IMG/VR virus record: IMGVR_UViG_2939177367_000003
Coordinates: 1 to 41,062 of that record
Source: a virus
Taxonomy: Duplodnaviria > Heunggongvirae > Uroviricota > Caudoviricetes
DNA: 41,062 bases
Strand: one strand, 5' to 3'
Shown: positions 23,757-26,370 of the stretch, one piece after another
Numbering within the stretch: the first letter of the stretch is position 1
How the letters are laid out: each line of letters begins with the position of its first letter
Notes under the pieces: model-generated
Databases searched by the model: none
What the model was told of the DNA's origin: nothing
What the model saw: only the letters and a program-made list of their open reading frames with translations
Translations under genes and position numbers: made by a program

Positions 23757-24256
23757 GACTCGATGATTTTCAGAAACGGGTTAGTTGCTTTTTTCTGCCC
23801 CGCCAGGCCAATCAGACGCTGGCGGCTGCTGGGGTCGAGTCCGAGCATTGCCCCCGTGCTGCTCATTTCGGACTCCTGTTCTTTTTTGGCGGTCAGCTCC
23901 GGATTTTTGACCATGCCGCCCATTGCACCGGTGATGGTGTTGCCATGTCTGGCAATATTTTTCACGGCACGTCGCCAGAACTCATAGGCCACGCACCACC
24001 GCTCAAGTACCGCCAGGTCAGTCACGCACAGCAGGCCCTGACCGCAGAGTTCTTTGGTTGTCAGTTGCCACATGATCGTGGCGAGAGGGAGATCTTCTTC
24101 TGCGAACCACTCCGGTGGCTCAACACCTTTGATGGGCGTAAAAACAGGTTCATCTTTGTTCAGGGCTCGCTTGCCGGGGTTTCCGGCCAGCGCCTTGCGC
24201 GCCGTTGGCTTGGGGCGACGCCCGGAACGCCCCGCCGTTCCAGCCATATGCGGCAC
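23753..24256 (-). CDS. Terminase small subunit (P27-family-like)
   Basis: 167 aa; overlaps terminase large start; C-terminal [14 protein letters not shown] motif. Confidence 0.65.
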
Positions 24257-24372
24257 TCCTGGTTAAATTTCATTTTTCGCGGGTATAAAAAAACGATGGG
24301 GCGGGCAGTCCGGAAGACGTCAGGTCACAGGGATTTGACCCGCCCCTCCCCTCTGGCAGTGGGAACTAGTTC

Positions 24373-24723
24373 TTACTTCAACCGTTCACGGGCCGTCTTC
24401 GCCTTATGACACGGCCAGCACAGACTCTGCAAATTACTGTCGGCATCAGTGCCGCCATGTGCTTTAGGGATGATGTGGTCAACGGTTTTCGCCTCGCGCA
24501 CCACACCGGCACGCAAACACAACTGACACAGGCCTTTGTCACGCTTCAGCACACGCGCGCGGATAACGTCCCACTTCGAACCATAACCGCGCTGGTGACG
24601 GGACTGACCTGGCTTGTATTGCCTCCAGCCTTCGCTTTTGTGGCTTTCACAATAGCCTGACGGATCTGTGGTGGTATGGCGGCAACCGCGAACACGGCAG
24701 GCTTTTGGGATTCGTGGCGGCAT
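24373..24723 (-). CDS. HNH endonuclease (terminase-associated)
   Basis: Cys/His motif ...HIIPKAHGGTDADSNLQSLCWPCHKAKT; just upstream of the terminase genes. Confidence 0.8.
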   Translation of the reverse strand: MPPRIPKACRVRGCRHTTTDPSGYCESHKSEGWRQYKPGQSRHQRGYGSKWDVIRARVLKRDKGLCQLCLRAGVVREAKTVDHIIPKAHGGTDADSNLQSLCWPCHKAKTARERLK

Positions 24724-24949
24724 ATGTACTAATCTCCGATTTATCCAAATTTCACTGCCATAATGCCGACATTCTCTGCCATTATTGGCTCCGTTTATCC
24801 GTTAAAAGGGATATCAGTTAAGTTATCCCGTGCAGGGTATAAGCCATTGTCGAGACCACTCATTGAATGGCCTCTGCAATAACCGATGTCTTTCCATCAG
24901 TCCGCCACCACAAAGAATCTTTTTTGCCATCAGGCAGGAGGTTCATCTT

Positions 24950-25213
24950 TCAGTGGCTGCCAGTGTTATTTCCCCACTTTCTGGCTTGGGTTGTTTCGAA
25001 GTACTGCCGTAATGCAAAAAAACTGGCTTGGGCGCCGCGCTCAGTAAAAACCACAGATTCGTGGTTTTTCTCCAGCTCGGCTAAGAACTCTTTGGTCTGC
25101 TCATCGATATAATAAGCCGACGCAAAATTGCGTTGGCTAAACTCACGCGAGCAATCATCCTTAACCTGCTCGATTTTTCTGAGAACATCACCGTTGGGCT
25201 TTGGAATGGTCAC
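24950..25213 (-). CDS. Hypothetical protein
   Basis: 87 aa ORF translationally coupled to the Rha-family gene; no recognisable motif. Confidence 0.3.
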   Translation of the reverse strand: MTIPKPNGDVLRKIEQVKDDCSREFSQRNFASAYYIDEQTKEFLAELEKNHESVVFTERGAQASFFALRQYFETTQARKWGNNTGSH

Positions 25214-25728
25214 TTTGGCAGTCCGGGGATCGATATTTGCGCCTGCTGCTCAAGCCTTTCGATTCTTGCTATGAGTTGCGGTTTTTTGATCCTGCCCCAG
25301 CGGTTCAGCAAGCGTCCTGACATACTGGCAACATCCTTTTCCTTCATGAACTCCAGCATTAACTCGTTGTGCTCTCTTTGGTATGAGTGAGCCATCTCCA
25401 TCAGCCTGTCACGCATCCAATTAAATGCTTTGATAAACGCCTCTTTGATGGCGGCAGCTTTTTTGCCGGTAAACGACATGATGATGTACATCGCACCGTC
25501 TTTGGAAATTTCATATTCAACATACTGATTACCCTTGTGTTCATAGGTAACCCGCGAAAAGTTGCTGGTTAGAAATTCATCCGAACAGTCTAGCTTTTCG
25601 ATTTTCTGAATGATGTGGTGATGCTGCTTGTCGAAGTAAGCTGCTACCTTGCGGGAGGTTGTGATCACGCGATCACCAGAAACAACCACCATGTCCCGGA
25701 AATCGAGATTAGCCAATTGATGATTCAT
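25210..25728 (-). CDS. Rha-family phage regulatory protein
   Basis: N-terminal MNHQLANLDFRDMVVVSGDRVITTSRKVAAYFDKQHHHIIQKIEKL is the Rha signature; start set at the internal Met. Confidence 0.6.
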   Translation of the reverse strand: MNHQLANLDFRDMVVVSGDRVITTSRKVAAYFDKQHHHIIQKIEKLDCSDEFLTSNFSRVTYEHKGNQYVEYEISKDGAMYIIMSFTGKKAAAIKEAFIKAFNWMRDRLMEMAHSYQREHNELMLEFMKEKDVASMSGRLLNRWGRIKKPQLIARIERLEQQAQISIPGLPK

Positions 25729-25875
25729 TGCGTCTTTACCTTTTAGAAAGTGAGCCTGTCTCACAGAAAAGCCGCCCCGAGATGGTCGCCACCATATACG
25801 GCAGTTCTCAGGCTCAACTTTCTGAAAGGCTCGGGTGATGTAATATGCGCGTGAGATGCGCTGTGAAATTCAGAT

Positions 25876-25901
25876 GTAAAAAAGCCCCGCATCGCGAGGC
25901 T
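25876..25901 (-). terminator. Rho-independent terminator after the lysis cassette
   Basis: GC-rich hairpin (AGCCCCGC / GCGAGGCT, 3-nt loop) followed on the minus strand by a run of six U. Confidence 0.5.
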
Positions 25902-25932
25902 CATTAAATTGACTTTGTGATTTGCAAAAAAA

Positions 25933-26370
25933 TTATTTCAGGCATTGCGTCCTGATGTACTCCTGCAGGTAGTTAACCTGCGCGGTTATCTTGTCGATTC
26001 CACTTCGGAGACGGTAATAATTGAGTTCAGCATCTGCTGTAAGTCTTGGGCTTTCTCCATCGCCCATGCTGCTGGCTCCGGTCGTTGACTTTGCACAGGT
26101 GGCGGCGACTTGCAGGCGCTTACGACCAGCAGAAACATCAGCACGGAGACTTTCGATAGTCGCGTTAGCATCAGCAAGCTCCTTTGTGTATCTGGCGTCG
26201 AGTTCTGCTACATCACGTTGACGCTTCTGCATATCAGCGATGATGGATGCGGCTTTATCGCGCTGCTCTTTGTAGGCGATGGCATTATCACGGTAATGAT
26301 TAACAGCCCATGACAGGCAGACGATGATGCAGATAACCAGAGCGGAAATAATCGCGGTGACTCTGCTCAT
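25933..26370 (-). CDS. Rz-like i-spanin
   Basis: N-terminal TM helix, then coiled-coil periplasmic domain; follows endolysin. Confidence 0.75.
25986..26177 (-). CDS. Rz1-like o-spanin lipoprotein, embedded in Rz in the +1 frame
   Basis: Signal peptide with lipobox VSAC and Pro-rich mature region ([16 protein letters not shown]). Confidence 0.55.

Follow-up and report, generated by a model that had tools for sequence, protein, structure and literature searches.

The gene found after the lysis cassette and ahead of the packaging genes in the lambdoid prophage analysed here (41,062 nucleotides of IMG/VR record IMGVR_UViG_2939177367_000003, the whole of which is called the window below) is, with high confidence, one real and intact gene of the Rha family, the 87-codon frame that overlaps its end (ORF87) is a recombination scar, and the two do not make up a two-gene module. 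Judged by sequence, ORF87 is a patchwork and not a gene. A preliminary description of the locus had presented it as a Rha-like regulator with a translationally coupled 87-aa partner protein of unknown function, perhaps a regulatory or interference module; the regulator stands, and the partner dissolves into recognizable pieces of two other genes plus non-coding DNA. Genes of this kind are already known: a Rha-family cassette occupies the lysis-to-packaging slot, with a pseudogene patchwork behind it. Any novelty near Rha would lie in the structured leader, not in ORF87.

The Rha gene and its late-operon setting

The late region of the window is that of a lambdoid prophage, encoded on the minus strand in the order Q, S, R, Rz/Rz1, terminator, Rha, ORF87, HNH, TerS and TerL (Table 1). 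The position first proposed for the gene is thereby borne out, with the lysis genes upstream, the HNH, TerS and TerL genes downstream and a hairpin with T6 after Rz. E. coli PE15 carries a locus 98.6% identical across positions 24300-26000 of the window.

Table 1. Features of the late region of the window in minus-strand order; the last column gives the analysis by which a feature was placed.
Feature	Position	Strand	Details	Basis
Antiterminator Q	28207-27584	-		
Holin	27150-26827	-		
Lysozyme	26843-26367	-		
Rz	26370-25933	-	Embedded Rz1-like lipoprotein ORF inside	
Intrinsic terminator after Rz	25902-25876	-	Hairpin 25902-25882 (9 pairs, loop 3), T6 25881-25876	Scan
Rha-G segment	25901-25195	-	707 nt, as in Gally and E. 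coli 2A (97%)	blastn
Conserved untranslated leader	25875-25729	-	About 150 nt, common to all slot genes	
Leader P0 hairpin	25861-25847	-		
Leader segment a	25835-25830	-	CCCGAG	
Leader long hairpin P1	25830-25818/25750-25738	-		
Leader P2	25815-25809/25758-25752	-		
Leader P3	25808-25799/25774-25765	-		
Leader inner hairpin	25793-25784	-		
Leader segment e	25781-25776	-	CUCGGG, complementary to a	
Rha gene	25728-25210	-	172 aa, intact; ATG at 25728, TGA 25212-25210	Pfam, PHROG
ORF87	25213-24950	-	87 codons, GTG-initiated; chimeric open frame, read as lying over a recombination scar	
End of Rha in ORF87	25213-25195	-	Last Rha codons, stop, 3' flank (19 nt in ORF87); holds the GTG 'start'	
Join J1	25195 to 25194	-	CCAAAGCCCA joined to ACGGTGATG	Junction alignment
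Fragment A	25194-25097	-	98 nt, 97% to codons ~50-82 of HK639/phiv205-1-type Rha (Rha-H), native frame	
Join J2	25101-25097	-	5-nt microhomology AGCAG	Junction alignment
Fragment B	25101-25035	-	67 nt, 100% to codons 43-65 of HK620 hkbK (KilA-N/ORF11CD3-type), native frame	
Join J3	25035 to 25034	-	Into T-run-bearing filler	Junction alignment
Filler	25034-25011	-	24 nt, CGCCCAAGCCAGTTTTTTTGCATT; T7 run at 25022-25016	
ORF87 tail	from 25010	-	61 nt of the linker; last 20 codons and stop	
Conserved non-coding linker	25010-24773	-	238 nt, follows the slot in P22-like phages	blastn
Mosaic boundary	24773 to 24772	-	To HK97-type HNH-terminase module	
HNH endonuclease	24723-24373	-	First gene of packaging module	
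Small terminase	24256-23753	-	P27 family	
Large terminase	23756-22023	-		

The Rha-family identity of the gene is confirmed by both of its domains. Pfam Phage_pRha (PF09669) matches residues 23-106 with 84.1 bits (cut-off 29.9; profile positions 1-90 of 91), ORF11CD3 (PF10549) matches residues 115-168 with 83.9 bits (cut-off 25; profile positions 1-54 of 54), and PHROG 518, 'Rha-like transcriptional regulator', matches at 5.5e-80. The protein is 100% identical to the Rha protein of phage Gally and to WP_001016386.1, an allele that we denote Rha-G, and it is present at 99% identity or more in 194 of 5426 complete E. coli genomes. Its relatives fill at least 334 protein clusters with the same two-domain architecture of about 170-185 residues and 44-99% identity, in Enterobacterales, Shewanella and Gilliamella. 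Conservation in the family alignment is far higher in the C-terminal ORF11CD3 half than in the N-terminal DNA-binding half, and dN/dS against diverged alleles is 0.015-0.083. A remnant, which the preliminary description had considered, is ruled out: the gene is full length, its homologues are equally long and it is under purifying selection.

An AlphaFold (AF2) model of Rha built from a 36-sequence alignment is confident (pLDDT 85.5). The N-terminal domain has the order beta-beta-helix-helix-helix-beta-beta and is followed by two long helices (residues 89-134 and 138-163). A sequence search across all PDB chains had no match below E 0.78, and Foldseek of the model against the PDB gave no significant match (best E 0.039, with weak winged-helix matches to TcpK, PadR and DdrC); the wHTH reading of Rha therefore comes from Pfam and the topology of the model. 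Most likely, Rha serves the phage as a DNA-binding accessory regulator or an antirepressor, one whose level has to be kept low.

The terminator ahead of Rha is annotated as such in HK639, HK106 and epsilon34, and its stem co-varies among relatives (GCCTCGC/GCGGGGC, GCCTGAC/GGTCGGGC and GCCTTGC/GCAGGGC). A consensus scan of the coding strand from this terminator to the Rha ATG found no sigma-70-like promoter, a scan that an atypical promoter may escape, and in several relatives (HK639 and others) the leader adjoins the terminator directly. Because no promoter is predicted and the leader follows the terminator directly in these relatives, Rha is most simply taken as a late gene reached by Q-modified polymerase reading through the terminator, and its expression would be late. 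The preliminary description had instead likened the gene to a moron. In that reading Rha, with or without ORF87, would be expressed in the prophage from a promoter of its own and would benefit the lysogen or protect it; the reading can draw on the hypervariability of the slot, on its position after a terminator, as is often the case with morons, and on a weak TTCACA-16-TATTAC match seen by eye at about 25866-25839. The stretch holding this match is, however, absent or different in many relatives; Rha points the same way as the late operon; the hairpin that follows it in the parental arrangement has no T-run, and no T-run terminator lies downstream; and P22 rha is described as a late-operon gene in PMC4936722. 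Together with the empty promoter scan, these points leave the moron label unsupported and make such a role for the gene improbable.

Composition and conservation of ORF87

The limits of the ORF87 segments come from blastn searches of fetched loci with the minus strand, from tblastn and from alignment of the junctions. The frame begins inside the Rha-G segment, where its GTG overlaps the Rha TGA as GTGA and where the left arm of a hairpin (AAGCCCA...) is found; this hairpin follows Rha and is complete in the parental arrangement, and J1 cuts its left arm. Beyond J1 lies fragment A, an internal piece of Rha-H that has neither end of the Rha domain, the N-terminal helix and the C-terminal wing both missing. 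It runs through the J2 microhomology into fragment B, a piece of a KilA-N gene, and after J3 come the filler and the linker-derived tail. The filler had no match in any fetched locus; it contains CCCAAGCCAG (25032-25023), of which a second copy lies at 24990-24981. By tblastn, residues 5-41 of ORF87 are 84-87% identical to an internal part of Rha from HK639, 2B8 and phiv205-1. Residues 34-67 share about 70% identity with the interior of KilA-N proteins (Stx phages, HK620 hkbK), and the counterpart of residues 69-87 is a stretch of Sf101 DNA without annotation. A likeness of residues 5-42 to the middle of the Rha domain shows in PHROG and Pfam profiles, below threshold (Phage_pRha, 15.9 bits under the cut-off of 29.9, profile positions 14-52 of 91 only), and the KilA-N profile (PF04383) gave no match at E ≤ 0.1, only 22 codons of hkbK (43-65) being present. 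An AF2 run on ORF87 alone, as a single sequence, gave a pLDDT of 53, which is uninformative and counts neither for nor against a protein. The length of 87 codons is unremarkable, since each fragment, read in its native frame, is necessarily open: on a rough reckoning about one join in 3 would be in frame, and the chance of some 28 further stop-free codons is about 0.26.

The joins also occur separately. J1 is limited to the window, PE15, EC-07, PM7 and the two Logan contigs L131 and L132; the parental sequence CCAAAGCCCATCTACGGGTG is present in 23 fetched loci, 21 of them from the IMG/VR scan. J1 alone, followed by the complete rest of Rha-H (a 143-aa ORF, MTIPKP...), is found in P0007 and in L131 and L132. 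J1 with J2 precedes the complete rest of a KilA-N gene and then an hkbL-like gene in E. coli PM7, and J3 alone stands behind an intact KilA-N 5' end (a 92-aa ORF) in P0006/L133. The distance from the ATG to the linker is usually 657 nt and is 732 nt in the window. These arrangements are consistent with J1, J2 and J3 having been stacked 3' of Rha, leaving behind 98 nt from an earlier Rha-H occupant and 67 nt from an earlier KilA-N occupant; both leftovers would happen to be in frame and to open into the non-coding linker, giving the 87-codon ORF. The order of the three joins is inferred, and prophage recombination could have assembled them in several ways.

ORF87 is not conserved, which is the outcome that the preliminary description had named as refuting its proposal. 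Its full 264 nt are found in two of the 5426 complete E. coli genomes (PE15 and EC-07), tblastn against 50,697 phage records gave no match at 80% coverage or more, and the three junction k-mers are absent from all 120 IMG/VR loci with this leader. A search of 5.8 billion protein clusters gave just a few near-identical matches, with tails in all three frames, and no diverged, full-length homologue with a conserved frame was found in related genomes. The PE15 and EC-07 versions have a T8 run where the window and L133 have T7, so the last 20 or so residues of their ORFs (82 and 78 aa) are read in another frame; the tail of P0003 is read in the third. In both genomes PGAP (NCBI) marks 84 nt as an 'incomplete' pseudogene of a 'Rha family transcriptional regulator'. 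The few carriers agree in all of the first 66 residues and are too close for selection to be told from recency.

Translational coupling to Rha had been proposed for this frame. No Shine-Dalgarno sequence precedes the GTG of ORF87, and in the parental arrangement (E. coli 2A, Gally) the same GTG opens 11 codons only (MTIPKPIYGWA*); on these sequences the GTGA overlap is no evidence of coupling. The chimeric ORF could still be translated by way of the overlap, and would yield no functional partner protein.

The linker that supplies the tail is 97% identical to HK620, phiv205-1, Sf101 and 2A, where it is unannotated and followed by hkbM/DUF2560, and its first 150 nt or so are at least 90% conserved in 44 distinct sequences. 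It ends 10 nt into the DUF2560/hkbM start (ATG 24782-24780), which is now a 13-codon stub. This strong nucleotide conservation among many phages, and the occurrence of a 68-nt linker piece on its own in other lambdoid prophages, would suit a reading in which the fragments 3' of Rha are kept for a function in DNA or RNA (a 3' UTR element or a recombination substrate) rather than for the ORF. Such retention is very unlikely, however, as the conserved portion is the linker and not the gene fragments, and fragments and joins are rare and are missing from the common Rha-G arrangement. It is harder still to credit that ORF87 is a genuine small protein coupled to Rha and acting with or against it, for instance as a dominant-negative peptide with part of the Rha recognition region: the stop/start overlap, the 87 open codons, the similarity of residues 5-42 to the middle of the Rha domain and the identity of the first 66 residues in PE15, EC-07 and a few metagenomic contigs are outweighed by its make-up from internal pieces of two unrelated genes and non-coding DNA, by a Rha piece that is truncated at both ends and below the Pfam threshold, by the frame-shifted tail in the nearest relatives, by a start that has no Shine-Dalgarno sequence and is an 11-codon ORF in the parent, and by its presence in two genomes against 194 for Rha, most Rha-G loci having the 657-nt parental spacing and no ORF87. 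For annotation, ORF87 should be labelled neither a gene nor a Rha partner; it is best treated as a pseudogene patchwork.

The cassette slot and its structured leader

The slot that Rha occupies was surveyed by scanning IMG/VR for a 16-mer taken from the ribosome-binding region of Rha. The same leader and ribosome-binding site precede at least 12 different genes, the leader being seen across the Enterobacterales; the slot is hypervariable. Rha-G occupies 37 loci and two Rha-H-like types occupy 24 and 17; other Rha types, four KilA-N types, T5orf172/GIY-YIG-like proteins and others make up the further occupants. The ending ...ITIPGLPG is common to the Rha variants and to KilA-N genes like hkbK of HK620. 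The slot is bounded upstream by the terminator and the nearly invariant leader, with sequence conservation running exactly to the ATG, and downstream by the conserved linker. A variable slot behind a leader conserved to the ATG fits the 'Bro network' of domain-swapping phage proteins, of which Rha is, by its sequence, an intact and selected member. Incoming cassettes would cross over homologously within the shared leader on their left and be joined illegitimately on their right, and every new occupant would leave a stub of its predecessor.

Across 72 distinct sequences, the roughly 130 nt that lead up to the ATG hardly vary. The leader is found in 151 phage records (73 Stx2a phages, as well as Klebsiella and Hafnia phages), where it is almost never annotated, and in 33 species-representative genomes from many genera of the Enterobacterales (a further match is spurious). 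In the RNAalifold prediction, CCUUU (25829-25825) pairs with the Shine-Dalgarno sequence AAAGG (25743-25739) as part of a long hairpin. In 66 distinct leaders, tested on the sequences from which the structure was derived, 92.9% of cells are paired as against 37-52% with the partners slid; 10 pairs are changed on both sides, compared with 1-5 when slid and 3.2 ± 1.0 when shuffled (none of 500 shufflings reaches 10). Six of 10 such pairs lie in helix P3; the pairs between the anti-Shine-Dalgarno and Shine-Dalgarno sequences are nearly invariant, so have no covariation support of their own. Segments a and e are exactly complementary in 64 of the 66 leaders, against a background of 2.7% for other 6-mers, and occur in three versions (CGAGAG/CUCUCG, CCCGAG/CUCGGG and AGAGAG/CUCUCU). 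As part of one fold the a-e pairing was rejected: RNAalifold omits it, and it is incompatible with the long hairpin. Since a abuts the base of the stem of about 27 bp and e sits in its loop, the geometry of the model suggests that the a-e pairing and the long hairpin are mutually exclusive. An Rfam search of positions 24200-26100 on both strands at E ≤ 1 returned only a chance snoRNA match (21.9 bits against a gathering score of 50).

From the predicted pairing of CCUUU with the Shine-Dalgarno sequence, the leader probably throttles translation of Rha. That it is an undescribed RNA switch, gating translation of potentially harmful Bro-network cassette genes in a late-operon slot, is a possible reading that we put forward tentatively; alongside this, the leader may also serve as a homologous 'entry' sequence for cassette exchange. 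If it does control translation of the Rha, KilA-N and related cassettes, this would explain how phages tolerate late genes that are harmful when over-expressed, and would give Stx and other prophages a further, widespread cis-regulatory RNA.

Relation to known phage systems

Rha is known from P22 (orf201) and phi80 (Mozola and Friedman, 1985; Henthorn and Friedman, 1995; both via PMC4936722). As described in PMC4936722, the Rha of these phages harms the phage if it is misregulated in IHF mutants, with growth inhibition in IHF-deficient hosts, a phenotype known only from phi80 and P22 genetics. The P22 and phi80 proteins belong to the same Pfam family (Phage_pRha) and have the same late-operon place between lysis and packaging genes, and P22-like Salmonella phages have a full-length Rha homologue with about 45% identity to the window Rha. 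The window Rha is a different allele (Rha-G). As no record named P22 was among the matches listed in the leader search, regulation in P22 may differ.

The Bro network comprises domain-swapping proteins with Bro-N, KilA-N, ANT, Phage_pRha and ORF11CD3 (Iyer et al., 2002, via PMC10111431), and frameshifts and fragments are described as known nuisances in this group (PMC10111431). Its proteins are modular like the window Rha, and Rha variants and hkbK use the same slot; for this comparison Pfam was run on the window Rha only, and PhiR49_1 is annotated 'KilA-N-ORF11CD3'. There is no categorical difference from the network; what the locus adds is that it keeps the intermediates of three consecutive swaps.

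Leaders that hide a ribosome-binding site in one of two RNA structures are familiar from the lambda cIII mRNA (Rfam Lambda_thermo) and from riboswitch expression platforms. The window leader is predicted to work with similar elements, a hairpin between CCUUU and the Shine-Dalgarno sequence and an exclusive, co-varying a-e pairing, and no Rfam family matches it by sequence or by model.

Mosaic junctions in lambdoid phages are attributed to illegitimate recombination followed by selection (the Hendrix/Hatfull model). The joins of the window are of this kind, lying inside genes with 0-5 nt of microhomology and flanked by conserved sequence that allows homologous exchange. Usually only the cleaned-up products are seen, whereas here each intermediate is present in a public genome, and the locus is a clean example of how a lambdoid mosaic is made, with all intermediates recoverable.

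The leader and its upstream boundary

The leader that precedes the intact Rha gene is common to a set of alternative cassette genes, at least 12 in number, and is spread over many Enterobacterales genera as well as Stx2a phages. No Rfam family matches it. It is predicted to form a long hairpin, backed by covariation, in which CCUUU is paired with the Shine-Dalgarno sequence; pairing of the mutually complementary segments a and e is also predicted and would give an alternative fold exclusive with the long hairpin. The short AT-rich stretch that separates Rz from the terminator is also found in E. coli PM7 and several IMG/VR loci. Gally, Sf101, 2A and phiv205-1 have a different segment in its place, with an annotated ORF of 144-153 nt overlapping the end of Rz; the region from Rz to the terminator is a further mosaic boundary.

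Features of the cassette slot and its flanks
Feature	Location	Strand	Description
AT-rich short stretch	window 25939-25902	(-)	Rz stop to terminator
Leader	window 25875-25729	(-)	post-Rz terminator to Rha ATG; sequence almost invariant
Direct repeat CCCAAGCCAG, 10 nt	window 25032-25023 and 24990-24981	(-)	two copies
Conserved non-coding linker	window 25010-24773	(-)	3' of cassette slot in P22-like phages
28-codon ORF, MNLLPDGKKDSLWWRTDGKTSVIAEAIQ*	window 24944-24858	(-)	within most conserved part of linker
Linker piece, 68 nt	window 24861-24794; L010 3001-3068		inverted repeat GGGATA-N10-TATCCC, then TTTT
DUF2560/hkbM stub	ATG, window 24782-24780	(-)	13 codons, RBS present
160-codon open frame	L008 2001-2483 (E. 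coli PM7)		extension of scar seen in window
HNH_3 homing-endonuclease gene	L131 419-970 (Logan SRR7871403_185)		leader region, directly upstream of Rha-G

The linker and the scar

In the window the last 10 nt of the linker are the beginning of the DUF2560/hkbM gene, and the junction with the HK97-type HNH-terminase module lies directly past the start codon of that gene. The 68-nt piece is found alone in other E. coli prophages, unannotated, with the lysis genes on one side and a lambda-type terminase on the other. Translation of the 28-codon ORF is doubtful because its ATG is merely 1-2 nt from GAAAG. One copy of CCCAAGCCAG is located in the filler at J3, a join of the scar (the 87-codon chimeric ORF that follows Rha), and the other 42 nt downstream in the linker; the repeat may be a trace of J3 formation. 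The remaining filler has no source among the loci compared. In PM7 the longer frame has the Rha-H fragment fused with residues 43-165 of KilA-N, C-terminal domain included; PGAP labels it a KilA-N domain protein and gives it a non-standard start. It is probably another chimera without function.

Endonuclease genes at the slot

Where the HNH_3 gene is located beside the Rha-G allele, the leader sequence is changed. In other phages (HK106, epsilon34 and 11 IMG/VR loci) the slot is occupied by GIY-YIG/T5orf172-like genes. Together, these neighbours and occupants suggest that the cassettes are moved by homing-type mobility.
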